Assembly (NCBI GenBank): GCA_016718805.1
Contig: JADKCP010000004.1
Span: 403,652 to 467,651 of the forward strand
Origin: Bacteroidota bacterium
GTDB taxonomy: Bacteria; Bacteroidota; Bacteroidia; UBA4408
Direction: 5' to 3'
DNA: 64,000 nt
The translations under genes were made by a program, and so were the position numbers. Positions 6,358 through 52,404 of the stretch are shown in pieces. How positions within the stretch are numbered: position 1 is the stretch's first letter; every line of letters starts with the position of its first letter. The notes under the pieces are model-generated. The model did no database searches and was not told where the DNA came from. It saw nothing but the letters and a program-made list of their open reading frames with translations.

Positions 6358-6359
6358 TG

Positions 6360-13837: not shown

Positions 13838-14344
13838 ATGATTCGATATACTACCAGCATTTTAAAATTTGACAAACAAGGTGAAAAAACAGGATGGACT
13901 TATTTAGTAATTCCAGCAGATATTGCTCAACAAATAAATCCCGGAATAAAAAAATCTTATCGCGTTAAAGGAAAACTTGATAACTATGTGTTTAGTGGTC
14001 TTACCATATTGCCGATGGGAGAAGGAGAATTCATCCTTCCATTAAAATTGGAAATACGAAAATCTATAGGTAAAAAACAGGGAGCTATGGTTTCGGTGGA
14101 ACTTGAATTTGATGCTACTGAATATGAAATTAATGCTGAATTTATTGCCTGTTTAAAGGATGAACCGGCTGCTTACAAAATTTTTTCGGCACTCCCAAAA
14201 TCGCATCAGCGTTATTATTCTAAATGGATTGAGAGTGCGAAAACCGATGCTACTCGTGCAAAACGCATACATTCAAGTATTTTAAGTTTCTTGAAAAATC
14301 AAACCTTTGCCGAACTGTTGCGTTCGCAAAAAAACCTTAGCTAA
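13838..14344 (+). CDS. DUF1905/YdeI (OmpD-associated) family protein.
   Basis: The N-terminal region ...YRVKGKLDNYVFSGLTILPMGEGEFILPLKLEIRKSIGKKQGAMVSVELE is DUF1905-like. The C-terminal ...ALPKSHQRYYSKWIESAKTDATRAKRI is YdeI-like. Confidence 0.65.
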   Translation: MIRYTTSILKFDKQGEKTGWTYLVIPADIAQQINPGIKKSYRVKGKLDNYVFSGLTILPMGEGEFILPLKLEIRKSIGKKQGAMVSVELEFDATEYEINAEFIACLKDEPAAYKIFSALPKSHQRYYSKWIESAKTDATRAKRIHSSILSFLKNQTFAELLRSQKNLS

Positions 14345-17414: not shown

Positions 17415-17419
17415 GTTGC

Positions 17420-19246
17420 TTAGCTATTTCCTGATAGGTTGCCGGTATTACAAAATTCAAATTCGCCCAAGCTGAAGCATTGCTCAAAGGCGCTCTTGCG
17501 TTTGAGCAGCGTAATGCTTTGCGCAATAAAAGAGGTTTGGTATTGCTTGGTTTGGTATTCGGGTTGAGCCTTGTTAAAGGTTTCGCCGGTGAGCTCCCCT
17601 GCCAGTAAAAGACTAAAGCGGTAATGAAAGGTAGCGCGGCTTGGGGGCAGTTGCAATTTGAGTCGCAAGGTCTTGCTGAAATCACTTCCTCCACGTGCCG
17701 CTTTTACCGGAATATGAATGTTTGATGGGGTTGCAACATCAAAGTTGCAGAGCTGTACTTCAAAAGGCTGTTGTGCCACGCATACAGCTTCAATGGTTTC
17801 AATGAGGTTTTGTTCTTTGCTTTCATCGAGTTGCAAAACGGCGAGTTCAATTTGTGGAATATTTTTTTCGGCACGTAGAAATCCGTAGTGTTGTGCAAAG
17901 TGTTTTTTTTCGTTCAGTAGTTCGTTTTTAACCTTTGCGGGAAGTGTGATTAACAACCTGTATTCATATTCTTCCTCGTTTAGTTTTCCTTTTTTATCGG
18001 GCGATGATGACACTCCGTTAAAAGGATTAAAGGTTCGTAATGAATTAGACAGGGCCACGGCACGATGTACAGCTTGCGGGCCGTACAAAATGCGCATTTT
18101 ATCCATCGCTTGATACAAATTAATTAGTTGTTCGCTATCTTCAAATAAATTGATTTGATAGCCTCCGCCCACGAGGTTACTAAAGCGCACGCCAATGAGG
18201 CGAATGAGCATGCGCCGGCTATACAATTTTTCGAACAATTCTTTTACGCGTGCAATGAGTACATGATCGTTGGAGCTATGCGCGATGCGGCATTGCATGG
18301 TATGTGTATCAAAATTTGAATACCTAATTTTAACGGTAACACAAGCAGTTAGTTTGTTTTCGCTGCGAAGTTGAAAGGCCAGTTTTTCGACCATTTTAAT
18401 TAAAATGTTCTTGAGTTTTTGCACGTCAATGGTATCGGTATCGAAGGTTTCTTCGCTCGAAATACTTTTGCGTTCGCTGTAAGGCTCAACCGGGGAAGTA
18501 TCAATTCCGTTGGCTTTTCGCCAGATGCTGCCTCCATTTTCGCCCAGTACATTTTGCATTAATTCGAGGGGCATTTGTTGCAGTGTATGTACTTTTTCTA
18601 TTCCCATGCTGCGCAACAGTGTATAGGTTTTTTCGCCAATCATGGGAATTTTTTTTACCGAAAGTGGCGCCAAAAAAGATTTTTCGCAACCCGGATCTAC
18701 CTTCATCTGGTTGTTGGGTTTTGCTTCGTCGGTAGCGACTTTGCTCACCGTTTTGTTGGGCGACATGCCAAATGAAATGGGAAGTCCGGTTTCGCGCATG
18801 ATTCGTCGGCGTAGTTCTGTAGCATAGTTGTAGCAGCCAAAAAACTTATCCATTCCGGTAAAATCCATGTAAAATTCGTCAATAGAAGAGCGTTCAAAAA
18901 GGGGAACGTATTCGCCAATAATCTGTGTTACTTCGTCGGAGCGTTTGCTGTATTCTTCGTAATCGCCTCGTACCACAAGGGCGTGCGGGCAGAGGCGTTT
19001 GGCCAGTTTCATGGGCATTGCCGAATGAATTCCGAAGGCGCGTGCTTCGTAACTGCAGGCTGCCACCACTCCCCTGTCGCTGCTTCCGCCTACCAACACA
19101 GGTTTTCCAATCAATTCGGGATGCATGAGCCGCGATACCGAAACAAAATAGCTGTCTAAATCCATGTGCACAATGGTGCGGTTCACTTCGCCTTCGAGGC
19201 CTTTCCAACTATACGGACTATGCAGTTGTTTATTGTTGTTGTGCAT
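17420..19246 (-). CDS. dinB: Y-family DNA polymerase (DinB/Pol IV type with catalytic residues retained) carrying an uncharacterised ~210-aa C-terminal extension. It occupies the ImuB position of a mutagenesis cassette.
   Basis: HMDLDSYFVSVS and SIDEFYMDFTG correspond to the E. coli DinB motifs VDMDCFF and SLDEAYLDVT. The protein is 608 aa versus ~350 aa for typical DinB. Its start codon lies 2 nt after the radical SAM stop, and its stop lies 5 nt before the dnaE2 start. Confidence 0.8.
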   Translation of the reverse strand: MHNNNKQLHSPYSWKGLEGEVNRTIVHMDLDSYFVSVSRLMHPELIGKPVLVGGSSDRGVVAACSYEARAFGIHSAMPMKLAKRLCPHALVVRGDYEEYSKRSDEVTQIIGEYVPLFERSSIDEFYMDFTGMDKFFGCYNYATELRRRIMRETGLPISFGMSPNKTVSKVATDEAKPNNQMKVDPGCEKSFLAPLSVKKIPMIGEKTYTLLRSMGIEKVHTLQQMPLELMQNVLGENGGSIWRKANGIDTSPVEPYSERKSISSEETFDTDTIDVQKLKNILIKMVEKLAFQLRSENKLTACVTVKIRYSNFDTHTMQCRIAHSSNDHVLIARVKELFEKLYSRRMLIRLIGVRFSNLVGGGYQINLFEDSEQLINLYQAMDKMRILYGPQAVHRAVALSNSLRTFNPFNGVSSSPDKKGKLNEEEYEYRLLITLPAKVKNELLNEKKHFAQHYGFLRAEKNIPQIELAVLQLDESKEQNLIETIEAVCVAQQPFEVQLCNFDVATPSNIHIPVKAARGGSDFSKTLRLKLQLPPSRATFHYRFSLLLAGELTGETFNKAQPEYQTKQYQTSFIAQSITLLKRKSAFEQCFSLGEFEFCNTGNLSGNS

Positions 19247-19248
19247 GG

Positions 19249-20325
19249 TTAAAATAATTCGGTTTGACCGTTTAGCGGCGGTCGTTTAAACAAGGTAAAA
19301 TCCTGTGCTGGCATTGATCGTCCGGCCAGGTGAAGCTTTACGGAAAGGCTAAACAGTTGCTTGATGCTTTCGGCAATTTTTCCTTCGCCGCGCATACGTA
19401 TTCCGGGGCGTGAATCGTTTACCTTGCCACCGTGGCAGGCCTCAATGTGATTCCATATTTTATCGGCAGCATCGGGTTTATTTTTATACAGCCAATCGCG
19501 AAAAATGCTTGCTATTTCGCCGTTTAAGCGTACAATGGTATAGCCGGCGGTAGCGGCACCGCAATCGGCTGCGGCTTTAACTATATCGGGAATTTCGTCG
19601 CTGTTTAATCCGGGAATGATGGGAGCTACCATTACTCCAACCGGCACCTTGTTTTGGGCGAGGGTTTCAATTACTTGCAATCGCTTTTTGCTGGTAGCGG
19701 TGCGGGGTTCCATACTGCTGCGAAGTTCTTCGCGTAAGCTGGTAACCGAAATCATTACGCGCAGTAAATTTAGTTGCGCGAGCTCGGTAAGTATATCCAA
19801 ATCGCGTAGCAGCAGCGAATTTTTTGTAATAATGCCTACGGGGTTTTTGTATTCGAGACAGGTTTGGAGCAGGCTTCGGGTTATCTTATAGGTTCGTTCG
19901 AGGGGTTGGTAGCAATCGGTATTTCCTGAAAAGGAAATGCACTCAACTCGATACTTGGGGTGATTAAAATGCTTGCGCAACAATTCGGAAGCAGTGGGTT
20001 TTACCATAATTTTGCGTTCAAAATCGAGGCCTGCGCTAAAGCCATAATAGTTGTGGGTATTTCGCGCATAGCAATACACACAGCCGTGTTCGCAGCCCTG
20101 GTAGGGGTTTGCGCTGCTCATCATGCCTACATCGGGACTGGTAATTTTGTTTACCAGGGTTTTAGGATAGTCCATGTACACTTCTGTTTTTTCGTCGCCG
20201 ATGAGTGGTTCATCAAGGCCTTCGATGTGTTCGGCCAGTACCTGGTATTTTAAGAAGCGGTTAGCCGTGTGAATTTGTGCGCCTCTGCCTTTAAGATAGG
20301 AACTATCGGGTAGGTTTTTCGGCAT
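19249..20325 (-). CDS. Radical SAM protein of the COG1533/SplB-like (DNA repair photolyase-like) type. It is the first gene of the operon.
   Basis: CEHGCVYCYARNTH is a CxxxCxxC motif. 358 aa. Translationally coupled to the dinB-like gene. Confidence 0.7.
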   Translation of the reverse strand: MPKNLPDSSYLKGRGAQIHTANRFLKYQVLAEHIEGLDEPLIGDEKTEVYMDYPKTLVNKITSPDVGMMSSANPYQGCEHGCVYCYARNTHNYYGFSAGLDFERKIMVKPTASELLRKHFNHPKYRVECISFSGNTDCYQPLERTYKITRSLLQTCLEYKNPVGIITKNSLLLRDLDILTELAQLNLLRVMISVTSLREELRSSMEPRTATSKKRLQVIETLAQNKVPVGVMVAPIIPGLNSDEIPDIVKAAADCGAATAGYTIVRLNGEIASIFRDWLYKNKPDAADKIWNHIEACHGGKVNDSRPGIRMRGEGKIAESIKQLFSLSVKLHLAGRSMPAQDFTLFKRPPLNGQTELF

Positions 20326-20345
20326 TTTTTAAACTTTTATAATGT

Positions 20346-20382
20346 TTGTATTACAATCATTTTTGTGATTACAATATAATCA
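20346..20382. promoter_or_regulatory. Candidate operator region of the LexA-like repressor, in the divergent intergenic region.
   Basis: Inverted repeats TTGTA-T-TACAA (20346-20356) and TGATTA-CAATA-TAATCA (20366-20382). ATTACAAT occurs twice as a direct repeat, 25-60 bp upstream of the radical SAM start codon. Confidence 0.3.
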
Positions 20383-20836
20383 TTTATATTTGCAGCAAGA
20401 AAAAATTTTACCACAAAGTTTGCACAGGACAAAAGCACCAATAAGAAAGTTTTTTAGTTCTAGTTGATTAGTAGTCGGCTCTTCGCCTTTGTAAATTTTG
20501 TGGTTTAATTTTTTTTCTCTGAAATGCGTAGATGAGCCGATTATTGGTGAGAATTATATAGAACGCTGATTTGATTAAGATGATTATGATTTTTTAGGAT
20601 TTATTTTCTTGGGAAAAGGGTCTAGAAATTACGGAAAACAGCAAATGTAGATTTCGTGTATTTCAATTGATTTTAAAAAGAGAATAAATGGAATTGAGGT
20701 AATCGATTGTGTTTGGTAATGCTGCAGTTTTAACCCCTGAAAAATTGACTGAACATAAGTTTGTGTTAACAGTGTTTATTACTTGTGCAAAGGATTTAAA
20801 AATTTTAAAAACCTACTAATTTAAACCTCAAAAGCT

Positions 20837-21478
20837 ATGTATTTCAGCAACAACATTAAACTTCTGCGTCAGCGCAAACAGCGTACACAGGATGTGGTGG
20901 CAGGAGAACTCGGAATGAGTCGCTCAACCTTTAACAGCTATGAAAATGGATTAATTACCAATCCAACCATAGATGCACTTATTGGCTTTTCGAGCTATTT
21001 TAAATTGTCGATTGATACTCTTGTAAAAGTGGACTTAAGTAAACTGTCGGAAAGTAAAATGCGGGAGCTTGAACAAGGGCACGATGATTTTATAAAAGGC
21101 ACCAAATTGAGGGTGTTGGCAACTACTGTAGACAGTAAAAACCGCGACAACATTGAATTGGTTCCGGTAAAAGCGAAAGCGGGTTATACAGCCGGTTATA
21201 ACGATCCTGAGTACATTAGTTCATTACCTACTTTTCAGTTACCCTTTTTATCGCCCGACCGCAAATACCGCACATTTCAGATAAGTGGCGACAGCATGTT
21301 ACCCATACCCGATAAAAGTTATGTAACCGCCGAGTTTGTGGATAATTGGATGAACGTAAAAGATGGCAATGCTTACATAGTGCTTACACAGGACGATGGG
21401 GTAGTTTTTAAAGTGCTTTACAATCAGCTTCGCAGCAAAAAAAAAGTTGTTGTTGAAATCACTCAACGCTGCTTATGA
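20837..21478 (+). CDS. Non-canonical LexA-like repressor (HTH_XRE plus S24 peptidase). The frame is broken in an A9 tract, and the C-terminal part continues in the next ORF.
   Basis: The N-terminal LRQRKQRTQDVVAGELGMSRSTFNSYENG is an XRE-type HTH. ISGDSMLP contains the catalytic Ser and VFKVL the catalytic Lys. The ORF ends 13 codons after the A9 tract at 21437-21445. Confidence 0.7.
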   Translation: MYFSNNIKLLRQRKQRTQDVVAGELGMSRSTFNSYENGLITNPTIDALIGFSSYFKLSIDTLVKVDLSKLSESKMRELEQGHDDFIKGTKLRVLATTVDSKNRDNIELVPVKAKAGYTAGYNDPEYISSLPTFQLPFLSPDRKYRTFQISGDSMLPIPDKSYVTAEFVDNWMNVKDGNAYIVLTQDDGVVFKVLYNQLRSKKKVVVEITQRCL

Positions 21479-30869: not shown

Positions 30870-32810
30870 TTACTTTGTAATAACGATGCGCTTAGTATAT
30901 TGCTTTTGTGCTTGTTTCAAACGAATTAAATACATCCCTTCTGAATAGTTAGATAAATCTATCTGTTTGCCTTCAGCAGCAAGTTCTATTTTTGAATCAC
31001 TATAAATGCGATTCGATAAAGCATCAAAAATTTCAAGAGATTCAATTTGATTTTTCTCCCCATTAAAATAAACCGTAATTAATCCGTTACTTGGATTGGG
31101 CTTTACAACTAATTGAGTTGAATAATTATTTTCCACAATAGAATTAGGTGCATTGAGCGTAAAGTTTACGGTTTTAAAGGCTCCGAAATCTCCAGTATTT
31201 GCAAGGTAAGAAGTTCCCGTTAATCCTTGTATCAAGCGAAAAAAACCATTTCCATTGTAGCAACACATCCCATCACCAAAACTATCATACATGGTAAATG
31301 AATAACATCCATTTGCCAAATAGAATGTATCGCGGTAAATTAAGTTGTTACCTGCATACGGGCCATGCGAATAAAGTATATTTCCTACCACATCCTTTAT
31401 GTCGTAGGAAGATTCATTTCCAGTATTATCGGTACGAACCAGGAGCCTAATTACGTTGGTAGCATAGACGTTTGTAGAATTGAAATTAGCTTTCTGAAAA
31501 TTATCTGTGGGAAATTCATCAGCTAGTCCATTCGGTAAAATTGCGGTGACTTCAATGCTATGTGTTCCGGTAGCTATCGTCAATGCAGGTAATGCAACGC
31601 TGGTGGTGTCTAGAAAAGCTAAATTGCCAGTCCAGGTATAATTTGGTTGAGCAACACCATCCACAGTTATTTGAAATTCAACCGAAGTTAGGGTCGAAGC
31701 ACCATTGTTTTTTATGAGCACTATTGGATTTGTACCACTACAAACCGGATTAGTTCTGCGATAATCGAAAGCACTGTTGGGCTGTTTGATTGCTTGCAGT
31801 TCAACATTGTTGGTATAGGAAGGTGGGTGATAATATACCAATTGGGTTTGTATCCAATATTCAGGTGCATAGCTGCAATTTGGGCCACCGGTATTGGTAT
31901 AAGGTACCATATCGTAATCGATTACGGCGTTTGTGCCAGCAGCCGCTAAGGTGGTAATATTGTAATCGTGCGGACGCACCCAGGCACCCGGACACCAATT
32001 GGCCCGATTGTAAAACCAGGTTCTTATTGCTGTGCCCGACATGGGTTGAGGATACAGCGGATTCGCGCCACAATCGTCGCGCCAGAGATGTTGTTGTAAG
32101 GTGTTTCCATTTACCAGTAGGGTATGTGTAAGGTCTGAAAACTCTGCTACATTCGGATCGGGGTCGCAATTAAAACCGTGACCGGTAGTTACAACCCGCA
32201 ATTTTGTTTGGTTTGCCAGCGAATCGATGGTAACTGATTTGGGTTGTAAATGATTGTCAATGGGGTCGCTGGCATTTCCATATTGAAAAGTACCTGTCCA
32301 CAAATTTTCGATGCTGTAAGCTTCGCGGATTGGATTTCCTTTTATCATGTAGAAATCAGCAGTTACTGACCATCCGTTCGCATAGCCACAAATAATGGTG
32401 CTCATTTTTACTGAATCGTTTAACAAGCTGCGGTAATCGCTCACATCCACCCAAAGTGTAACCCCCATGCCGTAAGGAGTAATCATGCGCATAATTTCGA
32501 AAGGCTCCTTTATTTCAGTTCCGGTGCTATCAAAAATTCCTGTGTTCTTAAATGCTTTTAAAATTCCAATACGGTCGTAAGGGTCGCAACCAATTCCAAC
32601 CGGACAGGTTAATTTATAATTGAGCATTATTTTCTCATACTTATTGGTATCGGCAGGAAATAAAAATGTTTGAACTATGGTATTGCAATTTTGATGAACC
32701 GCATTCGAAAATGTGTGCACAACAAGCGTGTCGCCGGGATTGGCCTTGGAGGCAAGTAAGCTCAGCAAGCAAGCACACAGTGTAAGTAAACCATTTTTAC
32801 TATAGACCAT
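30870..32810 (-). CDS. Secreted protein with a T9SS type-A C-terminal sorting domain. The N-terminal domain is unassigned.
   Basis: Signal peptide. The C-terminal ~80 aa (...LVVKPNPSNGLITVYF...EGMYLIRLKQAQKQYTKRIVITK) is Por_Secre_tail-like. Confidence 0.65.
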   Translation of the reverse strand: MVYSKNGLLTLCACLLSLLASKANPGDTLVVHTFSNAVHQNCNTIVQTFLFPADTNKYEKIMLNYKLTCPVGIGCDPYDRIGILKAFKNTGIFDSTGTEIKEPFEIMRMITPYGMGVTLWVDVSDYRSLLNDSVKMSTIICGYANGWSVTADFYMIKGNPIREAYSIENLWTGTFQYGNASDPIDNHLQPKSVTIDSLANQTKLRVVTTGHGFNCDPDPNVAEFSDLTHTLLVNGNTLQQHLWRDDCGANPLYPQPMSGTAIRTWFYNRANWCPGAWVRPHDYNITTLAAAGTNAVIDYDMVPYTNTGGPNCSYAPEYWIQTQLVYYHPPSYTNNVELQAIKQPNSAFDYRRTNPVCSGTNPIVLIKNNGASTLTSVEFQITVDGVAQPNYTWTGNLAFLDTTSVALPALTIATGTHSIEVTAILPNGLADEFPTDNFQKANFNSTNVYATNVIRLLVRTDNTGNESSYDIKDVVGNILYSHGPYAGNNLIYRDTFYLANGCYSFTMYDSFGDGMCCYNGNGFFRLIQGLTGTSYLANTGDFGAFKTVNFTLNAPNSIVENNYSTQLVVKPNPSNGLITVYFNGEKNQIESLEIFDALSNRIYSDSKIELAAEGKQIDLSNYSEGMYLIRLKQAQKQYTKRIVITK

Positions 32811-32875: not shown

Positions 32876-34675
32876 TTAATAAATTTCAACTGCATATTCC
32901 ATGCGCATTTGAACTGTGTTATTTGCTTTCGCAAATGAGCGCAATTGCTGCAAGTAGTTGTAGCTTTGACCCAATTCTTTTTTAATCACTTTTGTTTCTA
33001 CATCTCCTGAAATGTCGTTTACCAATTGTTCCAGTGCATCTTTTTGTTTGGGCAAATTATAAATTCGGTACTCCTTTATTTTAGCCAATTTCGCTGCTGA
33101 AGCAATTGCACTTTCAAGTCCACCCAATTCATCAATTAATCCTAATCGCAATGCATCAACTCCACTCCAAACACGTCCTTGGCCCATACTATCAATTTCT
33201 GCTTTTGTTTTGTGACGCCCTTCGGCTACTTTTCCGATAAAATCATCGTATATTTTTTCAACTGATTTTTGCATAAAAGCTTTTTCTTCGGCACTACTTG
33301 GTCGAAGGGCAGTGCCTGCGTCAGCATGATAGTTAGTTTTTACGGTATCGATGGTAATACCCAATTTATTGTTGAGCAGTTTTTGAGCATTCATCATTAC
33401 ACCAAATACTCCAATAGATCCGGTAATGGTTGTTGGGCTAGCAATAATTTTATCGGCAGCACAACTAATGTAATAACCGCCCGAGGCAGCTAAATCGCCC
33501 ATGGAAACAACAAGCGGTTTTTGCTTTTTAGCAAGCACGGTTTCACGCCAAATAACATCGCTTGCTAATGCGCTTCCACCTGGTGAATTCACACGTAAAA
33601 CAATTGCTTTTACTTTGGAATCATTTCGTGCTTCTCGAATGGCAGCGGCCAATTTTTCTGAACCGATAGTTTTTTCATCTCCTTCTCCACTTTCAATATC
33701 GCCTTGAGCAAAAATAACAGCAATTTTATCCATGCTTAATCTTTCGTGCGCTGAATCTGCTACCTTGTGGTATTTAGACAAAGAAACCAATGACACTTTA
33801 TCATCTGGCTTTTGTTTCAATCGTTTATTTAATTCAAGTTGTACTTCATCATCATACATTAGCTTGTCGATTAATTTCGCCGTAACAGCATCTTCTGCAC
33901 TATTAACAGTCATGTTATTTGCAAGCGCATTGAGCTGATCAATTTCTATTTTGCGTTGCTTCATAATTCCTTGTAGTAAGTGGTTCCAAATTGAACCGAT
34001 GAATGCTTTGGTTTGAATGCGATTAGCGTCGCTCATTTTATCTAAAATAAAAGGTTCTATTGCACTTTTAAATTTTCCGTGACGAATTATTTCAGGTTCC
34101 ACTTCAAGTTTTTCGAGCATTCCTTTGAAAAAAAGCAGCTGGGCACTTAGGCCTTTCCAGTCCATATCACCAGCGGGATTGAGATAAATGGCATCCGCTA
34201 CAGTTGCAAGGTAATACGCTTTTTGAGTGTAGTGTTCGCTGTAACTGATTATAAACTTATTAGAACTTTTAAAATCAAGAAGGGCATTTCTAATTTCCTC
34301 AACTGTAGCAATACCAGCAGGTATAGCGGATAATTGTAAATAAATACCTTTTATATTGTTGTCGTTTTTCGCCTTTTGAATATCCTTCAAAATCTCATTT
34401 AAGCCATTTTGATGATTCGATTTGAGTGAGGAGAAATTAAAATTATCAAAAGGATTTTTCGATGCTCGGTCCATTATTTCATCATCGAGTTTAAGCACCA
34501 GTACAGAGTTTTCCGAGATTTTAAACACTTCATCTTCACTCGATTTAAGCATCGTACTAATTCCTGCAATTAGTAGTGCAGCAACAATAAAAAAACAAAT
34601 TAAAAAGCCAAGCATGGAGGCAAACATGAACTTAAAAAACTGTCGCATTGAAAAATAGTTAAGGGTTAATTTCAA
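32876..34675 (-). CDS. sppA: Signal peptide peptidase SppA (67K type).
   Basis: 599 aa with two S49 repeats and VLRVNSPGGSALASDVIWRE. The start may be at the second Met. Confidence 0.85.
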   Translation of the reverse strand: MKLTLNYFSMRQFFKFMFASMLGFLICFFIVAALLIAGISTMLKSSEDEVFKISENSVLVLKLDDEIMDRASKNPFDNFNFSSLKSNHQNGLNEILKDIQKAKNDNNIKGIYLQLSAIPAGIATVEEIRNALLDFKSSNKFIISYSEHYTQKAYYLATVADAIYLNPAGDMDWKGLSAQLLFFKGMLEKLEVEPEIIRHGKFKSAIEPFILDKMSDANRIQTKAFIGSIWNHLLQGIMKQRKIEIDQLNALANNMTVNSAEDAVTAKLIDKLMYDDEVQLELNKRLKQKPDDKVSLVSLSKYHKVADSAHERLSMDKIAVIFAQGDIESGEGDEKTIGSEKLAAAIREARNDSKVKAIVLRVNSPGGSALASDVIWRETVLAKKQKPLVVSMGDLAASGGYYISCAADKIIASPTTITGSIGVFGVMMNAQKLLNNKLGITIDTVKTNYHADAGTALRPSSAEEKAFMQKSVEKIYDDFIGKVAEGRHKTKAEIDSMGQGRVWSGVDALRLGLIDELGGLESAIASAAKLAKIKEYRIYNLPKQKDALEQLVNDISGDVETKVIKKELGQSYNYLQQLRSFAKANNTVQMRMEYAVEIY

Positions 34676-34865
34676 TTAAAAGAAACAAGCGCGATTTGTT
34701 ATTGTTGTAAACTCGACAAAATAAAAGGATTCGTGCAAGATTTACCTAACAAATTTAGGCGCTGCAAAATAGGCATTACTATTAGTTTATACAAATAGAG
34801 AAGCGATTCTAAAGCAAAAATAAGTACCTAAATTTTTTGTTGCAAGGAGTGGGAAACAGAATGAG

Positions 34866-34941
34866 AAACAGAATGAGAATGAGAGGGAGAAACATAATAA
34901 GAAGGGTCGCTCTTCGCTCTCATTCTCATTCTCATTCTGTT
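34866..34941 (-). terminator. Long hairpin terminator closing the transcription unit of tRNA-Ala plus the repeat array on the minus strand.
   Basis: About 20-bp inverted repeat AAACAGAATGAGAATGAGAG ... CTCTCATTCTCATTCTGTTT with a ~35-nt loop. On the minus strand it is followed by a T-rich tract. It shares the GAGAATGAGAATGAG motif with the hairpin at 6290-6357. Confidence 0.55.
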
Positions 34942-34943
34942 TA

Positions 34944-35591
34944 GTGGAGAATACCGGATTCGAACCGGTCACCTTCCCGATGGATCGGGACGCTCTTGCT
35001 TTTTTTTTGTGGAGAATACCGGATTCGAACCGGTCACCTTCCCGATGGATCGGGACGCTCTTGCTTTTTTTGTGGAGAATACCGGATTCGAACCGGTCAC
35101 CTTCCCGATAGATCGGGACGCTCTTGCTTTTTTTTTTTTGTGGAGAATACCGGATTCGAACCGGTCACCTTCCCGATGGATCGGGACGCTCTTGCTTTTT
35201 TTTGTGGAGAATACCGGATTCGAACCGGTCACCTTCCCGATAGATCGGGACGCTCTTGCTTTTTTTTGTGGAGAATACCTGATTCGAACCGGTCACCTTC
35301 CCGATAGATCGGGACGCTCTTGCTTTTTTTTTGTGGAGAATACCGGATTCGAACCGGTCACCTTCCCGATGGATCGGGACGCTCTTGCTTTTTTTTTGTG
35401 GAGAATACCGGATTCGAACCGGTCACCTTCCCGATAGATCGGGACGCTCTTGCTTTTTTTTTGTGGAGAATACCGGATTCGAACCGGTCACCTTCCCGAT
35501 AGATCGGGACGCTCTTGCTTTTTTTTGTGGAGAATACCGGATTCGAACCGGTCACCTTCCCGATAGATCGGGACGCTCTTGCTTTTTTTTT
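34944..35591 (-). repeat. Tandem array of 10 units, each 63-68 bp. Each unit is the 3'-terminal ~31 nt of tRNA-Ala (variable loop, T arm, acceptor 3' strand and CA) plus a 34-nt flank containing the palindrome CCCGAT(G/A)GATCGGG and an A8-13 tract. Coordinates are given on the tRNA strand.
   Basis: On the plus strand each unit reads GTGGAGAATACCGGATTCGAACCGGTCACCTTCCCGAT(G/A)GATCGGGACGCTCTTGC(T)7-12. Units start at 34944, 35009, 35072, 35140, 35204, 35268, 35333, 35398, 35463 and 35527. Unit 6 carries a G-to-T change (CCTGATTC). Confidence 0.9.
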
Positions 35592-35592
35592 G

Positions 35593-35666
35593 TGGAGAAT
35601 ACCGGATTCGAACCGGTCACCTCTTGCCTGCCAGGCAAGCGCTCTAGCCAAATGAGCTAATTCCCC
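35593..35666 (-). tRNA. tRNA-Ala (anticodon GGC).
   Basis: The reverse complement reads GGGGAATTAGCTCATTTGGCTAGAGCGCTTGCCTGGCAGGCAAGAGGTGACCGGTTCGAATCCGGTATTCTCCA. It has the G3:U70 Ala identity pair, anticodon loop CTGGCAG and discriminator A. Confidence 0.9.
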
Positions 35667-35781
35667 AAGTAATGCGGACTGCGAAAATAGAAAATCTTTT
35701 TATTCGGACTAATTAATTGCAGTAATTTTTTATTTTTGGGAAAGCCTTATAAAGCTTTATATTTACTCATCAAATATACTT

Positions 35782-38685
35782 ATGCAAGCTTGCGTTTTAC
35801 GCCCTTTAATTTTTTTATTACTTTTAGTTTTTCAGTATAAAAGCCACGCTACACATATAGTTGGAGGAGTTTTAAATTATCGGTATTTGGGGAATAGCAA
35901 TTATGAAATTCATCTTACCGTATTTAGAGACTGCAGCCCTAGTGTAACCACACCTTTTGATAATCCGGCAAGAGTTGGAATATTTGATGGAGCCAATAAT
36001 TTTATCAACGATATTTTAATTCCAATATCTCCAATTGATACCTTGGCTCCTTCAATTAATAGTCCTTGCCTGACTCCGCCCTCTATTTGTTATGAACGCG
36101 CTCAGTATTTTGATACCATTAATTTACCACCAACTAATTTAGGGTATCAATTGGCCTATCAGCGTTGTTGCCGCAATGGGACTATACAAAACATAGTAAC
36201 GCCTTTGCAAATTGGAGCAACATATTATGCAAGTTTACCAAGCAATACAATTGCTTTTTCAAACTCAAATCCAACCTTTACGAATTTACCTCCGCTTTTT
36301 TTGTGCTTAAATTATCCTTACACGTTTGATCATTCGGCAACAGATTTGGATAGCGATTCATTGGTGTATAGTTTATATACTCCTCTTGAAGGAGGTTCGC
36401 AAGGATCCCCTTCTCCCAATCCTACCAATCCCCCACCCTACTTTCCACTATCGTTTCAGCCACCCTATAATCTTTCAAATGTTATGGGAGGTGTGCCTTT
36501 GACTATCAATCCGCAAACGGGTTCGCTAACAGTAACCCCAAATACACAAGGGCAATTTGTAGTAGGTGTTCAAGTGGCTGAATACCGCAATGGTTTTTAT
36601 TTAGGAGCTACCAAAAGAGATGTGCAATTTAATGTAGTGCCATGCCCTAATTTAATTGTCTCTGAAATTGTAATTCCAGTACCCAGTTTGCAAGCAATTG
36701 TAGCTTGTGGAAGCAATACAGTGCAGTTTAACAACAATAGTTTTGGAGCAGTAAACTATAAGTGGAATTTTGGTGATCCTACAACAATAAGCGACACCTC
36801 TTTATTGTTTCAACCCAGCTATACTTATCCCGGTCCCGGTACATATCAATCCTACTTAGTAGCTTTTAGTTCGAATCCAAATTGTAACGATACCAGCTTT
36901 GCTACGGTAAAAGTTTACCCTCCTTTTACTGCTGATTTTACAAGCAATTTTAATCCTTGTACACGAACTGTTAGCCTAACTGATTTAACAACCTTTCCGG
37001 GTCACCCTATTACTAGCCGTTCCTGGAATTTTGGAGATGGTAGTACTTCAACATTGCAAAACCCAACGCATACCTATGCAAACCCGGGAACTTATACCAT
37101 AACTATGCAGTCGGCTTCTAATTTGGGTTGTTCAGGTAGCAAAAGTATAACGATTACCGTTCCATCGGTAAATACACTAAGCGTTGCCGGTTCAACTTCC
37201 ATATGTTTAGGCGATAGTACACAGATTTCTGTAAGTGGTGGTTTCGATTATTCGTGGTTTCCGACGATTAGCCTTAGCAACCCTACTAGTGCTAACCCTA
37301 TTGCATTTCCAAGTAGTACTACTACTTATTCTGTTTTAGGAAAAGTACTTACGAGTACAGGTGATACATGTAGCGCCAACCAATCGGTTACTGTTACGGT
37401 GAATGCTTTAGCACAGGCAGCAGCATCTGTTAATCCAATAAGTTGTGGCAAAAAAACGATTCCTTTCACTAATACATCGCTTAATGCACTAAGTTATGCT
37501 TGGAATTTTGGAGACCCCAGTTCTACAAGCAATACATCCCTGCAAACAAATCCTGTACATCTGTATTCAGATACCGGAATTTTTCAGATTCGCTTAGTTG
37601 CTTATACGCAAGCGGGACAACAAGGATGTACCGATACAACCTATACTAGTTTGCATATTTACCCACCAATAATTGCCGGTTTTGATTATGAAGTAGAAAG
37701 CTGCAGCAATACTGTTAGCTTTTATGACAGCACCGCTGATGCTTTTTCGCATCCTTCAAATTGGGTATGGGATTTTGGTGATGGGCAATTTTCATTTCTT
37801 CAAAATCCGATACATGTGTATGCGAGTTTTGGGAATTTTAATGCGAGTTTAATTGCAAGTACATGGGTAGGATGTAAAGATACGCTGATTGTTCCCATTA
37901 ATTTAACTGCTTTGGCTGCTGCAGTTGGCCCAAATGATACCAGTTTGTGTGACGGTAATCCGGTAGAAATTTCGGCCTCCGGAGGTATCGCGTATTTATG
38001 GACACCGGCAATTGGATTAAGCAGTGACACTGTTGCCAACCCAACTGTTACAATTAATCAAACTACCACCTATACTGTTGCAATTACAGCAATTGCGGCC
38101 GATGGAGATACTTGTATTATTTCAAAAAATGTAACAGTATTTGTCCCTTCCGGTCAATTACCCGCCTTAACAGCAACAGTTGATAAAGATACTATTTATG
38201 CAGGTGAAAGCACTATACTGCATGCTATCCCCGATCAATCAAATTTATTCTACAATTGGACTCCGGCATCCTGGTTAAATAGCGCAGCAATTGCAAATCC
38301 TGTTGCTACACCTCTTGAAACAATCACTTACCAAGTTGTACTATCCGATTCATTTGAATGTGTGCGTAATGCCGATGTTAAAATTGTAGTGATTCAATTG
38401 AGTTGTGGCGAGAGTGAAGTGTTTATTCCCAATTCATTTACGCCCAATAACGATGGCGAAAACGATATTTTATTTGTACGCGGAAATCAAATTAAAGAAT
38501 TGTATTTTATCGTTTACAATCGCTGGGGTGAAAAAGTATTTGAAACTAATAATCCCAAAAGTGGTTGGGATGGAATTTACAAAGGAGTTATTTCAGAACC
38601 GGGAGTATTTGCCTACTATGCGCGTATTATCTGTTTAAATAATGATGAATTAATTAAGCAGGGAAATGTAACTCTATTACGCTAA
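35782..38685 (+). CDS. Cell-surface protein with PKD repeats and a T9SS type-B (gliding-motility-associated, CHU_C-like) C-terminal domain.
   Basis: Signal peptide. Several WNFGDG/WNFGDP PKD motifs. The C-terminus ...VFIPNSFTPNNDGENDILFVRGNQIKELYFIVYNRWGEKVFE...GWDGIYKG is typical of type-B CTDs. Confidence 0.8.
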   Translation: MQACVLRPLIFLLLLVFQYKSHATHIVGGVLNYRYLGNSNYEIHLTVFRDCSPSVTTPFDNPARVGIFDGANNFINDILIPISPIDTLAPSINSPCLTPPSICYERAQYFDTINLPPTNLGYQLAYQRCCRNGTIQNIVTPLQIGATYYASLPSNTIAFSNSNPTFTNLPPLFLCLNYPYTFDHSATDLDSDSLVYSLYTPLEGGSQGSPSPNPTNPPPYFPLSFQPPYNLSNVMGGVPLTINPQTGSLTVTPNTQGQFVVGVQVAEYRNGFYLGATKRDVQFNVVPCPNLIVSEIVIPVPSLQAIVACGSNTVQFNNNSFGAVNYKWNFGDPTTISDTSLLFQPSYTYPGPGTYQSYLVAFSSNPNCNDTSFATVKVYPPFTADFTSNFNPCTRTVSLTDLTTFPGHPITSRSWNFGDGSTSTLQNPTHTYANPGTYTITMQSASNLGCSGSKSITITVPSVNTLSVAGSTSICLGDSTQISVSGGFDYSWFPTISLSNPTSANPIAFPSSTTTYSVLGKVLTSTGDTCSANQSVTVTVNALAQAAASVNPISCGKKTIPFTNTSLNALSYAWNFGDPSSTSNTSLQTNPVHLYSDTGIFQIRLVAYTQAGQQGCTDTTYTSLHIYPPIIAGFDYEVESCSNTVSFYDSTADAFSHPSNWVWDFGDGQFSFLQNPIHVYASFGNFNASLIASTWVGCKDTLIVPINLTALAAAVGPNDTSLCDGNPVEISASGGIAYLWTPAIGLSSDTVANPTVTINQTTTYTVAITAIAADGDTCIISKNVTVFVPSGQLPALTATVDKDTIYAGESTILHAIPDQSNLFYNWTPASWLNSAAIANPVATPLETITYQVVLSDSFECVRNADVKIVVIQLSCGESEVFIPNSFTPNNDGENDILFVRGNQIKELYFIVYNRWGEKVFETNNPKSGWDGIYKGVISEPGVFAYYARIICLNNDELIKQGNVTLLR

Positions 38686-47579: not shown

Positions 47580-50500
47580 ATGAAAAAACTTAGAAGTAGC
47601 TTAAAATTAATATTGGCTTTAGTTCTGTGTCTTGGTGTTAAACAAGCTTCAAGTCAAATAACAGTTTCAACTACCAATACCTTTACAAATAATAACGGTA
47701 GTGGTACTGTAACATTTAACTTTGAAAATACCAACACAAGCGACATTATCATTACCGATATTGAAGGAATAACCGGATCAAGTGGCACATTTTCGGTAGA
47801 TTTTTGGTATAAAACTACTCCGGTTAATGGGGCTCCGGGAGCAATTTCGGTAGCAAATGGTTGGACACTTGTTGCAACAGGTACGATAACAGGTGTTGCC
47901 AACACAATCTCTACAACCACTCAATCATTTTTTAGCGGATTGAATTTTAATGTTCCGGCTGGAGCGCTTTATGGATTTGCTGTATCGGCTTACAATGGAA
48001 CTGCCGGAGTTCAACGTTATCATACAATTGTTGCCCCCAATCTTCCAACTGTAACAATGTCGGCAGGTGGTTGTAACATTATAACGGGAACAAACATTGG
48101 ATATGGAGGCGGAGCACCGCCAACAGCGCCAGGAAACACACCGCGAGGTTGGTTAGGTTCTATCTCTTTTATACCTGCAATTCCCTGTACTGCACCGCCT
48201 ACAGCTGGTATGACAATTTCAAATGATTCAACTGTTTGCCCTAACACAAATTTCACGCTTGGTTTAACAGGAAACACACTGGCTTCAGGATTGTCATACC
48301 AATGGTTATCTTCTTCCAATAACACAAGCTGGACTCCTATTTCCGGTGCTACAAATATTAATTATAATACTAGCCAATTAACAAATACCTATTATCGTTG
48401 TATTGTTACCTGCAACAGTGTAAGTGATACTTCGAGCAGTGTATTTATTACTACCAATTCATTTATTAATTGCTATTGTACTTCAAATCCAACTTCAGCA
48501 GCTGGTAGTGATATAGGAAATCTTGCTGTTGCCAGTTTAAATAATGGAGTTGCCGGTGCTGCAACTAACAACCCAGCATCAACCGGAACCTATACTGATT
48601 ACACTTCTTTACCTCCTACTGCGCTCACCCAAGGAGCAAGCTATCCATTAGCTATTACTCAAATCAATAGTGCCGGTTTTACAGTGAACTTTGCAACTGT
48701 TCATATTGATTTTGATCACGATGGTATTTTTGACCCGGTGACCGAAACTTTTGCTATTGGAGCAAGTAACGCTGCTGCAGGAGGAAACATAATTAACGGG
48801 AATATTGCTATACCATTTACTGCGTTAACCGGTCAAACCAGAATGCGTGTAAAATTGCAAGCAGGAGGTTCAGCGACACAAAGTCCTTGTGGGACTTACG
48901 GAACCGGTGAAACAGAGGATTATATTGTTTCAATTGCAGCTGGTTCACCTTGTACGGCACCGCCAACAGCAGGTACCACTATGAGTTCGCTTTCGAGCGT
49001 GTGTCCTAGTACATCGGTTACTATTTCATTAAGTGGAAATTCAATAGGCACCGGTCAAACTTATGTTTGGGAATCTTCTCCGAATGGAACAAACTGGACA
49101 ACAGTTAATGGTGTAAGTTCAACCTTTTTTATTGCGACAATCACTAACACAATTCAGTACCGTTGTATAGTAACTTGCAGTGGGCAAAGCGCAACTTCAA
49201 CTCCTGTTGTCGTTACAATTAACCCACCTTCGTTATGTTATTGTGTAACCGGGCTTGGTGGTGGAAACTGTGGAGGTAATTTAATAACCACGGTAGAAAT
49301 AACCGGAACAACCCTGAATAGTGTATCAGCTGATACCTGTACCTTTACAACCGGAAATACATTAACTGTTTATCCGCCAACAGGTGCAACCACTGCAACA
49401 TTAATTCAAGGTGTTACATATGACTTAAATGTAACACTTTCTGCGAGCAGTATAGTTTCTGTTTGGATTGACTATGATAGGAATGGAATATATGCAGCAA
49501 GTGAATGGCAGCAGGTTGCAGTTACTTCAACATCAGGAACACCCAATACAATTCAAATTAATGTTCCCTTTTCATCTGGCCTCGGCCAAACAGGTATGCG
49601 TGTGAGAAGTAGAGGTGTGGGTAATACTAATGGAGCTCCGGATGCATGTACCAATTTTGGTAGTGGTGAATCTGAAGACTATGTTATAACTATTATTCCG
49701 AATACACCTTGTGCAGGAACTCCAATTGCAGGTACAACGGTATCTAGTGTTGTTTCAGCCTGTCCGAATGTTCCTTTCAGCTTAAGTTTAAGTGGAAATA
49801 CACTAGCTTCAGGCTTAACATATCAATGGCAAAATTCAACCAATAATGTTTTATGGAATTCTATAACTGGAGCAACTAATGTGGGCTATTCAACTACGCA
49901 GGTTGCTGACTATTATTACAGATGTATTGTTAGTTGTGGCGCTGCTTCCGATACTTCAACTGCTTTATTAGTAACAACAAATTCATTTTTTACTTGTTAC
50001 TGTGCTTCAAATGCAACCGACCCGGCTGATAGCGATATTGGAAATGTAAGCATTGGTTCATTAAATAATGGGAATCCAAATCCTGCAACAAACAATTCAA
50101 CGGCTACTTCAACCTATACCAGTTATAGTAACGTTTCACCGCCTGTATTGCTAAAAGGATTAAATTATCCTATTTCAGTAACACAAATAAACCAGCTTGC
50201 ATTTTTAGCTTGCAACTTAAAAGTGTATATCGATTATAACCAAGATGGAATTTATGATACAGCAACTGAGGAAGTGCTTAATGGACAGTCGAATGCAAAT
50301 TTAGGTGGTAATGTAATGAGTGGAAATGTGCAGATTCCAACTACTGCTAGTAGTGGTTTAACTGGAATGCGCGTGGTTCTGGTGGAGGGAACGTTTTCGA
50401 CTGTTACACCTTGTGGAACTTATTTTAATGGTGAAACAGAAGATTATATTGTAGAAATACAAACTCCATTGCCTTGTAGCACTCCTCCTGCTGCTGGAAC

Positions 50501-52271
50501 TGCGATATGTACAGCTACCTCAGTATGTGCAAACACTCCATTTGATTTAAATTTATCAGGAAGTGCTAATGCTTCCGGGTTAACCTATCAATGGCAAGAA
50601 TCGAGCAATGGAACTAGTTGGCAAAATTTACCAGGAGCTACTTCCATTTTGTATTCCTATTCACAGGTTGCTGCAACTTATTATCGTTGTGAAGTTATTT
50701 GTTCAGGAGTTTCATCTTTTTCAACACCTGTTTTAGTAGGTTTAAATTCGTTTTATACCTGCTATTGTACCAGCGGAGCCACCAGCACAGGAGACGATGA
50801 TATAGGTAATGTTACTTTTGGATTAATGAGTAATGGTATTGCAAGTCCTTCTACTCAAAATCCTACTTCTGTAAATACCTATTCAAATTTCACGAATTTG
50901 CCACCATATAGCTATATACAAACACTTACCTACCCTATTTCAATGACACAAATTAATTTGAATGGATTTTATGTTAATAGTGGGGCTATTTTTATTGATT
51001 TTGACCACGATGGAACATTTGACCCTTCTACCGAATCGGTATTGAGTGGTACTACATCGGCAGGGAATACTACTATAAGTGGCACTTTAACAATCCCTCT
51101 TTCTGCCTTAACCGGAATAACCGGAATGCGTGTTGTAATGAAAGAAACCGCTACCCCTGCAGCCCAGCCTTGTGGAACTTATACTTGGGGTGAAACAGAA
51201 GATTACTTGATAAATATTTTAGCACCCAACTCTTGCACAGTACCGTTTATTGCCGGCTTTGCAAAAACAAGTTCTAGTCTTGTTTGTGCAAGCGATGTAT
51301 TTACATTATCAATTGACAGTTTGCCGCCAGATACTGGATTTACTTTTCAATGGCAACAATCGTTTGACAGCATTAATTGGAGCAATATTGTTGGAGCTAC
51401 TACCCAAATATATAATGGAACACAAAGTTTTAAATCGTGGTACCGCTGTAATGTTACCTGCAATGGGGGAAGTATGGAAAGCTCAATTGCAACTAAAATA
51501 CTGAACAAACCGGTTACTCAGTGTGATTATTGCAACTCCATTATCAATGGGAATTGCAGTACCGATTATTTTATTGACTCATTGGCTATTGGTGGAACAA
51601 CCTTAAATAATGCCAACACTGGTTGTGCTGCCAATGCCGGATTTGCATATTCAAAATATCCGTTCAATGGTAATACAACAGCTGATTTAGGTAGAGGCAA
51701 TTACTACGATTTGTACGTAAAAACTTCGGGGTCTTGCAATATTTCAGTTTGGATAGATTATGATCAAAGTGGAACTTTTGATGCTAAGGAGTGGATTCAG
51801 GTTAGTCAAGCAACCGATTCGGCTGTGGCTACTACTGTTCCTTTAGTATTACCTACCGGCGCAACATTAGGTGCAACCGGACTTCGAATTCGTTCGCGCA
51901 AAGCCGGTAACATAAACATGGCAGCAGATGCTTGTAGCACTTATGGTAGTGGCGAAACTGAGGACTATTACATAAATATAATAGAGGCTATTTCTACCGG
52001 TAAGGAACTAAGTAACGATAAAAATGTTCGCATATATCCCAATCCGGCATCAGGAAATGTAACTTTGGAATATCACTCTGAAGAGGCAAAAACTTTACAG
52101 ATAAAGTTATTAAACGCAACTGGAAGTTGTGTGTTTTCTGAAACTACAGATAAATTTAAAAATAGTTATTCTGCCAAATTATCCTTAGATGATTTTGCTC
52201 CGGGAATTTATTTTGTACAGTTTACTACTGATAAATCTGTAAGTATAAAAAAGCTGATTATTCAAAAATAA
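47580..52271 (+). CDS. Giant T9SS cargo protein of 1563 aa. Architecture: signal peptide, a unique N-terminal domain, then about 5 repeats of an Ig-like module plus a module ending in GxGETEDY (GEVED-like), then a T9SS type-A CTD.
   Basis: Repeated CTAPPTAG...YRCIVTC and ...PCGTY(x)xGETEDY(I/L)(V/I) blocks. The C-terminus is VRIYPNPASGNVTLEYHSEEAKTLQIKLLNATGS...GIYFVQFTTDKSVSIKKLIIQK. Confidence 0.8.
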   Translation: MKKLRSSLKLILALVLCLGVKQASSQITVSTTNTFTNNNGSGTVTFNFENTNTSDIIITDIEGITGSSGTFSVDFWYKTTPVNGAPGAISVANGWTLVATGTITGVANTISTTTQSFFSGLNFNVPAGALYGFAVSAYNGTAGVQRYHTIVAPNLPTVTMSAGGCNIITGTNIGYGGGAPPTAPGNTPRGWLGSISFIPAIPCTAPPTAGMTISNDSTVCPNTNFTLGLTGNTLASGLSYQWLSSSNNTSWTPISGATNINYNTSQLTNTYYRCIVTCNSVSDTSSSVFITTNSFINCYCTSNPTSAAGSDIGNLAVASLNNGVAGAATNNPASTGTYTDYTSLPPTALTQGASYPLAITQINSAGFTVNFATVHIDFDHDGIFDPVTETFAIGASNAAAGGNIINGNIAIPFTALTGQTRMRVKLQAGGSATQSPCGTYGTGETEDYIVSIAAGSPCTAPPTAGTTMSSLSSVCPSTSVTISLSGNSIGTGQTYVWESSPNGTNWTTVNGVSSTFFIATITNTIQYRCIVTCSGQSATSTPVVVTINPPSLCYCVTGLGGGNCGGNLITTVEITGTTLNSVSADTCTFTTGNTLTVYPPTGATTATLIQGVTYDLNVTLSASSIVSVWIDYDRNGIYAASEWQQVAVTSTSGTPNTIQINVPFSSGLGQTGMRVRSRGVGNTNGAPDACTNFGSGESEDYVITIIPNTPCAGTPIAGTTVSSVVSACPNVPFSLSLSGNTLASGLTYQWQNSTNNVLWNSITGATNVGYSTTQVADYYYRCIVSCGAASDTSTALLVTTNSFFTCYCASNATDPADSDIGNVSIGSLNNGNPNPATNNSTATSTYTSYSNVSPPVLLKGLNYPISVTQINQLAFLACNLKVYIDYNQDGIYDTATEEVLNGQSNANLGGNVMSGNVQIPTTASSGLTGMRVVLVEGTFSTVTPCGTYFNGETEDYIVEIQTPLPCSTPPAAGTAICTATSVCANTPFDLNLSGSANASGLTYQWQESSNGTSWQNLPGATSILYSYSQVAATYYRCEVICSGVSSFSTPVLVGLNSFYTCYCTSGATSTGDDDIGNVTFGLMSNGIASPSTQNPTSVNTYSNFTNLPPYSYIQTLTYPISMTQINLNGFYVNSGAIFIDFDHDGTFDPSTESVLSGTTSAGNTTISGTLTIPLSALTGITGMRVVMKETATPAAQPCGTYTWGETEDYLINILAPNSCTVPFIAGFAKTSSSLVCASDVFTLSIDSLPPDTGFTFQWQQSFDSINWSNIVGATTQIYNGTQSFKSWYRCNVTCNGGSMESSIATKILNKPVTQCDYCNSIINGNCSTDYFIDSLAIGGTTLNNANTGCAANAGFAYSKYPFNGNTTADLGRGNYYDLYVKTSGSCNISVWIDYDQSGTFDAKEWIQVSQATDSAVATTVPLVLPTGATLGATGLRIRSRKAGNINMAADACSTYGSGETEDYYINIIEAISTGKELSNDKNVRIYPNPASGNVTLEYHSEEAKTLQIKLLNATGSCVFSETTDKFKNSYSAKLSLDDFAPGIYFVQFTTDKSVSIKKLIIQK

Positions 52272-52291
52272 CAGAAAAGTCTTCGTGTTTA

Positions 52292-52325
52292 CAAAAAAGT
52301 CCTTATTTTTAAGGACTTTTTTGCT
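52292..52325 (+). terminator. Rho-independent terminator after the first giant gene.
   Basis: AGTCCTTA tttt TAAGGACT followed by TTTTTTGCTTTTA. Confidence 0.7.
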
Positions 52326-52404
52326 TTTATACCCTCAATCAACCATATTTTATTCTTAATTTCAATTGCGGCATACCATCATCAATGATTAACCAACCTT
52401 AACT

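Follow-up and report, generated by a model that had tools for sequence, protein, structure and literature searches.

We report here on a tandem array that follows a tRNA-Ala(GGC) gene in a stretch of 64,000 nucleotides from a Bacteroidota bacterium (assembly GCA_016718805.1, contig JADKCP010000004.1, positions 403,652 to 467,651; this whole stretch is called the window, and coordinates without further indication refer to it). Directly behind the intact tRNA gene, on the same minus strand, lie ten head-to-tail units of 63-68 bp (34944-35591), all of which contain the 3'-terminal sequence of this tRNA (AGGTGACCGGTTCGAATCCGGTATTCTCCAC). At this locus the copy number differs among close genomes (0, 1, 2, 10 or 11 units), and this is what characterises a minisatellite, or variable-number tandem repeat (VNTR). 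We think that the array is quite probably a hypervariable minisatellite located in the 3' trailer of the tRNA, which would grow and shrink by slippage or unequal recombination.

Structure of the array and its transcription unit

The tRNA-Ala(GGC) gene (35592-35666, minus strand) is recognised by ARAGORN and by Rfam (RF00005, 64.3 bits), which set its 3' end at 35592 or 35593, and folds into a cloverleaf; CCA is not encoded, and the sequence runs on as ...CTCC A CAAA. Tandem Repeats Finder gives 10.5 copies with a period of 65 at 34940-35622 (96% matches, score 1262) and, together with ARAGORN and Rfam, bears out a preliminary description made from the letters of this DNA, in which the tRNA was followed by ten same-strand units of 63-68 bp. 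With boundaries set by splitting at TTCTCCAC, units 1 to 5 occupy 35591-35527 (65 bp), 35526-35463 (64 bp), 35462-35398 (65 bp), 35397-35333 (65 bp) and 35332-35268 (65 bp), and units 6 to 10 occupy 35267-35204 (64 bp), 35203-35140 (64 bp), 35139-35072 (68 bp), 35071-35009 (63 bp) and 35008-34944 (65 bp), all on the minus strand. The array terminates flush with a tRNA-like 3' end (CTCCAC), after which comes TAAACAG.

Each unit consists, in this order, of a run of 7-12 A, the 9-nt GCAAGAGCG, a palindrome (TCCCGATC(T/C)ATCGGGA), AGGTG, the T-arm, ATTCTCC and AC. In unit 1 (35527-35591) these elements are A9 (35591-35583), GCAAGAGCG (35582-35574), the palindrome TCCCGATCTATCGGGA (35573-35558), AGGTG (35557-35553), the T-arm ACCGGTTCGAATCCGGT (35552-35536), the acceptor 3' strand ATTCTCC (35535-35529) and AC (35528-35527). 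The spacer motif CGTCCCGATCYATCGGGA occurs 10 times in the array, against 0.02 occurrences expected by chance, and nowhere in the rest of the window.

From AGGTG on, as the preliminary description had it, unit and tRNA agree letter for letter, over everything between tRNA position 44 and the 3' end. The similarity does not begin there, however, since the preceding 9 nt (GCAAGAGCG) are also tRNA-like: they match positions 39-45 (7/7) or, alternatively, the D-loop/D-stem sequence GCTAGAGCG at positions 19-26 (8/9). Either parse is possible. According to the first, the palindrome would be a 20-nt insertion in the variable loop; according to the second, the 16-nt palindrome would stand in place of the 17-nt anticodon arm, and the unit, once its A run is set aside (56 nt), would be colinear with positions 19-75 of the tRNA (57 nt). 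The 16-nt palindrome is not tRNA sequence under either of them. A single unit RNA folds into two hairpins, formed by the palindrome and by the T-arm (-17.8 kcal/mol), which is not significant when compared with shuffled sequences (z = -1.6).

The units are not all alike, and the three kinds of polymorphism listed in the preliminary description are indeed present: the centre of the palindrome is C in units 1, 2, 4 and 7 (numbered as in that description, from the plus strand) and T elsewhere, the A runs vary between 7 and 12 nt, and one unit carries an uncompensated substitution in the T-stem, at 35280.

A candidate promoter is present about 16 nt upstream of tRNA-Ala, in the form of a -7 box (TATTTTCG, then GCAGTCC; 35682-35689, minus strand). 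The Bacteroidota -7 promoter consensus is TAnnTTTG, and we infer that this similar box is the promoter of the gene; the other of the two tRNA genes in the window, a tRNA-Met (6359-6433), has TACTTTTG plus GCAGTCC at the equivalent upstream place (6450-6457). On the 3' side of the array, after TAAACAG, the strong hairpin noticed earlier is real: it is built of GAATGA/CATTCT hexamer repeats (about 34854-34942, minus strand) and folds at -38.4 kcal/mol (z = -7.8 versus shuffles). A hairpin of the same hexamer family stands directly downstream of tRNA-Met (6287-6354), and this is probably the native terminator type of the tRNA genes of this organism. If so, the array is located inside the tRNA-Ala transcription unit. 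The co-transcription of array and tRNA proposed in the preliminary description is thus plausible, as a deduction from the place of the array, which has the tRNA on one side and on the other the kind of hairpin also found behind tRNA-Met. In relatives (see below), the stretch between the last tRNA fragment and the next gene, sppA, which includes this hairpin, varies by strain (332, 354 and 382 nt; the relatives compared are L257, L261 and L266, where L numbers designate contigs or loci), and short-read contigs of relatives terminate within the hairpin.

The same locus in related genomes

The loci of relatives were gathered through the protein encoded by sppA (signal peptide peptidase S49; 32876-34648, minus strand, 206 nt past the hairpin; Pfam Peptidase_S49, E = 4e-79), using the exact SppA protein, which is found in three NCBI records of metagenome-assembled genomes, and members of its 90% cluster. 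In a first lineage, whose flanks are 99-100% identical to the window, there are 10 short units in the window, 10 in L001 (GCA_016721255.1) and 11 in L262. In closely allied genomes (98%), the units are long (257-320 bp) and number 1 in L263, at least 1 in L244 and at least 3 in L245; each long unit contains, besides the palindrome and the tRNA fragment, a 110-nt segment and a terminator hairpin of its own. A second lineage (93-95%) has exactly one short unit in each of five loci (L246, L257, L258, L259 and L261). In a third lineage (93-94% identical to the window, 99.4-100% between its members), L266 has no unit, L267 and L272 have one each, and L268 has two short units. These last low counts are not due to repeat collapse, since the contigs (whose k141-style names we read as k = 141) span both flanks.

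In the outgroups (L250, L252, L253 and L255; SppA identity 69-72%) the gene order is conserved (PKD protein, tRNA-Ala, sppA), and there is a single tRNA in inverted orientation, with no unit, no fragment and no palindrome. The inversion involves tRNA-Ala and its promoter region (35592-35781 in the window, compared with 3530-4000 in L250, 2555-3000 in L252 and 2600-3000 in L255), in such a way that the tRNA points toward the PKD gene in outgroups and toward sppA in the window. From these comparisons we conclude that the unit arose once, before the three lineages split, that the array has since expanded to 10-11 copies in one of them, and that a complete loss of the unit can occur.

The comparison between the window and L001 is particularly informative: there are 21 differences in 13.8 kb, and 18 of these 21 are within the 650-bp array, the ten units of L001 having their C/T variants in another order. 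The flanks of L262 are 99.0-99.5% identical to the window, and its units are noisy, with indels that are probably unpolished long-read errors. The preliminary description had favoured ongoing unequal crossover or slippage over a single duplication, and had listed a tRNA-derived minisatellite among several possibilities; the concentration of differences in the array and the series of 0-, 1-, 2-, 10- and 11-unit alleles between matching, near-identical flanks support a minisatellite of this kind that grows and shrinks. In addition, the existence of a 0-copy allele (L266) in a lineage whose four contigs encode an identical SppA protein shows that the array is dispensable.

The following scenario, the one that we favour, would account for these alleles. 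A seed unit of about 61-64 bp would have formed in the common ancestor of the species group to which the window belongs, at a locus where tRNA and promoter were inverted; it would have consisted of a short A run, a small non-tRNA palindrome and a copy of the 3' part of the tRNA, a short duplication having set this second tRNA-3' copy a few tens of bp behind the first. Direct repeats that lie close together and bear hairpins are well known to undergo replication slippage and unequal exchange, and a copy located 27-34 bp from an identical tRNA sequence, both with inverted repeats, should thus be prone to slipped-strand mispairing and unequal recombination. Such events add or remove whole units, and the observed allele series is what they would be expected to produce, the lineage of the window having drifted up to 10-11 units, the sister lineages having 0-2, and one sub-lineage having adopted units of 257-320 bp. 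The array would most likely be transcribed as the 3' trailer of the tRNA and discarded during 3' processing.

Several points weigh against this scenario and should be acknowledged. Neither the palindrome nor the 110-nt segment found in the long units has a match in the flanks, in outgroup trailers, in phages, in plasmids or in viral contigs, so that the unit is not accounted for by simply duplicating native sequence. Moreover, the differences between unit and tRNA sit in one block, the palindrome, unlike what is expected from the neutral divergence of a duplicate. Two assemblies (the window and L001) have exactly 10 units, possibly a hint of stability or of a shared recent origin, and some of the homopolymer and single-base differences between units may be long-read assembly noise. 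Finally, that the array would have no function of its own is argued only from its dispensability and from missing signals.

For this genome the array is a small matter, that is, a dispensable and fast-changing repeat that breaks short-read assemblies and could possibly serve as a strain marker.

Arrays behind other tRNA genes

The preliminary description did not recognise this arrangement as a described feature, and this opinion has to be revised, because the RtT repeats behind tyrT/tyrV of Escherichia coli share its architecture and similar arrays are present behind many tRNAs in many phyla. The tyrT repeat is said to have been the subject of classic papers by Egan and Landy in 1978, by Rossi et al. 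in 1981 and by Bosl and Kersten in 1991. Behind tyrV of E. coli K-12 there are 3.1 copies of a 178-bp repeat, each starting with the last 19 nt of tRNA-Tyr (AATCCTTCCCCCACCACCA), and this array also finishes flush with a tRNA fragment; Rfam gives four RF00391 (RtT) matches at the locus (133-138 bits), and across 5,426 complete E. coli genomes the number of RtT units there is 1, 2, 3 or 4.

Both arrays are thus made of same-strand tandem repeats behind a tRNA, each repeat containing the 3' end of this tRNA; both end with a flush fragment, vary in copy number between strains and are located inside a tRNA transcription unit (as far as this can be deduced for the window). They differ in dimensions (units of 178 bp with a 19-nt fragment in about 3 copies for RtT, units of 65 bp with 35 nt plus 7-9 nt in 10 copies for the window), in the spacer (a structured element of 130 nt versus a 16-nt palindrome and an A run), in the tpr-like ORF that is present in the E. 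coli locus and not in the window array, and in the host, which is here a Bacteroidota. RF00391 has no match at E up to 10 in 34700-35800. By analogy, we regard the window array as a new variant of an RtT-like architecture and not as a new kind of element.

Other known systems resemble the array in part. Bacterial minisatellites are likewise intergenic, with units of tens of bp and copy numbers that differ between close strains, but here the unit derives from the adjacent tRNA gene, and the first copy is part of a functional gene. The trailer of a tRNA operon can also have a fate of its own after processing: 3'ETS-leuZ of E. coli is a 3' external transcribed spacer that acts as a small-RNA sponge, and the array transcript could meet a similar fate, although this is pure analogy.

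Our survey of one genome per prokaryotic species, in which we looked for three T-arm motifs 38-68 nt apart, yielded at least 120 loci, including about 90 regular tandem arrays among the matches listed. (A pattern with two T-arms was abandoned as too permissive, being saturated even in viral contigs.) In at least 72 clusters the first copy is an intact tRNA called by ARAGORN, and the fragments are always downstream, on the same strand. Among the 72 clusters listed, the isotypes are Ser (15), Arg (13), Leu (10) and then eleven others, and the extra copies number 2 in 50 clusters, 3 in 15, 4-7 in six and 10 in one, which places the window array at the upper end of the range among the matches listed. 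The hosts, again among the matches listed, are Actinomycetota, Acidobacteriota, Bacteroidota, Chloroflexota, Verrucomicrobiota, candidate phyla and haloarchaea. Related species may share an array at the same tRNA with differing copy number, as for tRNA-Gln of Acidobacteriaceae (2.5, 2.6 and 10.7 copies). A full-text search of the literature, which is not a proof of absence, gave no account of short tRNA-3'-fragment arrays as a class.

The actinobacterial arrays show a recurrent peculiarity. In units that reach the anticodon loop, A37 is replaced by C with respect to the resident tRNA in five isotypes, and U34 is replaced by C in Leu-TAA and Thr-TGT (arrays compared: L128, L130, L148, L157, L160, L180, L195, L203, L210, L226 and L230). 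Blocks of the C37 type have no match in phage, plasmid or viral collections, and a known phage or plasmid attP carrying this variant was not found. These replacements prompted us to consider a retro-copy of a mature tRNA; we rejected it for the window, where the units have neither CCA after the discriminator nor an anticodon loop. The Arg-TCT units of Microbacteriaceae share a 7-nt non-tRNA extension, CGCGGTG. One of these arrays, in Microterricola pindariensis (L160, 1719-2250), consists of eight tRNA-Arg(TCT) 3' blocks separated by two unrelated 23-nt spacers that alternate as ABABABAA, and is a higher-order repeat in which blocks were conserved and spacers replaced.

Palindromes are also found elsewhere: the tRNA-Met arrays L139, L200 and L242 have perfect GC-rich palindromes between the part derived from the anticodon loop and the T-arm. 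In L139 the left arm of the palindrome (AATCCCGCC) is identical to the 3' strand of the T-loop/T-stem, which suggests an origin by fold-back copying. The only viral match with three T-arms among those listed (L123, 7150-7650, in an IMG/VR contig of 249 kb) is not an array; it is a jumbo-phage cluster of 12 tRNA genes together with three degenerate T-arm-like elements, near to one another, that ARAGORN does not call.

If these loci are considered together, the E. coli tyrT repeat, usually held to be a curiosity, appears as one instance of something that commonly happens at tRNA 3' ends across many phyla. They would provide a natural system for the seeding and amplification of short duplications beside hairpin-forming, highly transcribed genes, as well as candidate loci for RtT-like RNAs beyond enterobacteria, and they call for caution in tRNA annotation and in the detection of genomic islands based on tRNA fragments. 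The class-wide survey and the A37-to-C signature of actinobacterial arrays are, in our opinion, the parts that merit follow-up.

Other proposed origins, possible function and genomic surroundings

An alternative that we take seriously, while considering it clearly the less probable one, is that the seed unit is the scar of a tyrosine integrase. The rebuilt tRNA would correspond to attL, the element arm with the displaced fragment to attR, and the element itself would have been lost apart from a few tens of bp, the array having grown by homologous or integrase-catalysed unequal exchange between att copies. This proposal bears on how the seed arose and does not conflict with the expansion mechanism that we favour. 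It would explain at once the palindrome, the class-wide positions of the unit boundaries and the local inversion of the tRNA-Ala gene relative to outgroups. Indeed, a non-tRNA palindrome preceding every fragment resembles the inverted-repeat core of an attP: that of phage Mbo4, which corresponds to tRNA-Arg, is identical to the tRNA from position 39 onward, up to the 3' end, and has a 10-bp inverted repeat on its left. Depending on which of the two parses is taken, the similarity in the window starts at position 39 or, the anticodon arm being replaced, at position 19. Among the matches listed in our survey, the left ends of units cluster at the T-arm start or in the anticodon loop, which Williams is said to have described in 2002 as the two sublocations used by tRNA-targeting integrases. 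The predominance of Ser, Arg and Leu tRNAs among the arrays listed, and the alternation of unrelated spacers around identical tRNA-like blocks in L160, also fit this proposal.

Against it, there is no match to an integrase, transposase or phage gene among the 38 window ORFs that reach 150 aa, and no integrase family is hit by two or more of the 111 ORFs located beside 63 other arrays, whose nearest downstream genes are housekeeping genes. The palindrome and the insert of the long units have no match in phages, plasmids or IMG/VR. As for the clustering of boundaries, it does not discriminate between seed origins, since hairpin bases are also natural sites of polymerase template switching; fold-back template switching at the T-arm is in fact another possible origin of the seed, as hinted by arrays such as L139, in which a palindrome arm copies a T-arm strand. 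Fragments of tRNA genes are described as leftovers of integrative elements in passages of PMC9897764 and of the Islander database paper (PMC4383910). The displaced fragments at attR resemble our units in being downstream direct repeats of the tRNA 3' part preceded by non-tRNA sequence, but they bound islands of 5-200 kb with an integrase, whereas the repeats in the window are regular, tenfold and only 27-34 bp apart, with no integrase in the window. The opinion of the preliminary description that this is not an ordinary att duplication can therefore be maintained.

A functional RNA element is unlikely in our view. The array would then produce unit-length small RNAs, or sponges and decoys for enzymes that bind the T-arm or the 3' end; in a variant of this idea, the length of the array would set how much transcription from the tRNA promoter reads through into sppA, and the array is indeed on the same strand as sppA, upstream of it and within the putative transcription unit. 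There is a precedent in E. coli: a passage of PMC4986893 (with reference to Bosl and Kersten 1991) describes RtT RNAs as freed from the transcripts of tRNA operons and as connected with the amino-acid starvation or limitation response. Furthermore, in tRNA-Arg(TCT) arrays of Microbacteriaceae a 50-nt block including the 7 non-tRNA nucleotides is conserved between genera, the remaining spacer being unrelated. On the other hand, the 0-copy allele occurs in a strain whose SppA protein is the same and whose flanks are 99.4-100% identical, one unit tolerates an uncompensated T-stem substitution, and the unit fold is no better than that of shuffled sequences, with no structural signal beyond the two hairpins. 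No Rfam family matches the unit even at E up to 10. Pairing between the spacer and the acceptor 3' strand is not above chance (5 of 72 arrays at p < 0.05); since this complementarity is not enriched and the fold does not exceed shuffles, the units are not mini-tRNAs with a pseudo-acceptor stem.

We consider equally improbable a further reading, in which the arrays form a class widespread in bacteria and archaea, of which we found no description, and at least some of its members are under constraint and are not passive scars. It would draw on the actinobacterial replacements at A37 and U34 and on the Microbacteriaceae extension that is kept while the remaining spacer turns over. If this pattern reflected function, the units could be RtT-like RNAs, decoys for factors that bind the 3' part of tRNAs, or inactivated attachment sites that block integration, and the window array, with its 10 units, would be one extreme member of a general system.

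That the array was inflated or invented by a long-read assembler is practically refuted: homopolymer lengths do differ between assemblies, L262 has indel-type noise typical of unpolished long reads and short-read contigs break beside the array, but three independent assemblies have 10, 10 and 11 units, and short-read contigs span whole 1-unit and 2-unit alleles with both flanks, five further contigs having a single unit. Neither the unit nor its repetition in tandem is thus in doubt, whereas the number 10 and the precise lengths of the A runs are less secure.

Other candidates can be dismissed briefly. The array is not a CRISPR, as already stated in the preliminary description: the sequence between the tRNA-like blocks is constant in all units, and there is no cas gene or Cas domain in the window. 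It is not the repeat RNA of a toxin-antitoxin system of type III (ToxI-like), the downstream gene being sppA and not a ToxN-type endoribonuclease. An extant genomic island or prophage was rejected because the window has no integrase, IMG/VR does not contain the palindrome-plus-fragment motif (a metagenome scan matched the same chromosomal locus only), and the insert of the long units is absent from phages and plasmids. A tandem array of complete tRNA genes is incompatible with the single complete tRNA found there by ARAGORN and Rfam. Finally, the insert of the long units is not a diverged native flank or outgroup trailer, no significant local alignment having been obtained beyond one borderline exact 12-mer (CCACTAAACAGA) in one outgroup.

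The array is located in a core chromosomal region. According to Pfam, the 38 ORFs of at least 150 aa include IF-2, NusA, RimP, ThyA, FolA and Der, as well as an aminoacyl-tRNA synthetase, PdxA, RNase H and several type IX secretion cargo proteins, and none of them is an integrase, a transposase, a reverse transcriptase, a Cas protein or a phage gene. Several ORFs of 60-142 aa appear on both strands within the array (34969-35660; for example 35009-35437, plus strand); these result from the periodicity of the repeat and are not to be taken for genes in an annotation.

Type IX cargo genes flank the array region, with a PKD/CHU_C protein on one side (35782-38685) and an N-glycanase-like protein on the other (30870-32810). 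There are also two pairs of adjacent large paralogous proteins, with BNR/Ig (241-6231) and GEVED (47580-56355) repeats; a type IX secretion sorting domain is present in both copies of the BNR/Ig pair and was detected only in 47580-52268 for the GEVED pair. Lastly, the region 14340-21475 contains a cassette for a polymerase of DnaE2 type (14340-17414), an ImuB-like protein of the Y family (17423-19246) and a radical SAM protein (19252-20325), adjoined by a divergent HTH regulator (20837-21475); with a G+C content of 0.42-0.46, compared with about 0.37, this region looks like an SOS mutagenesis module.

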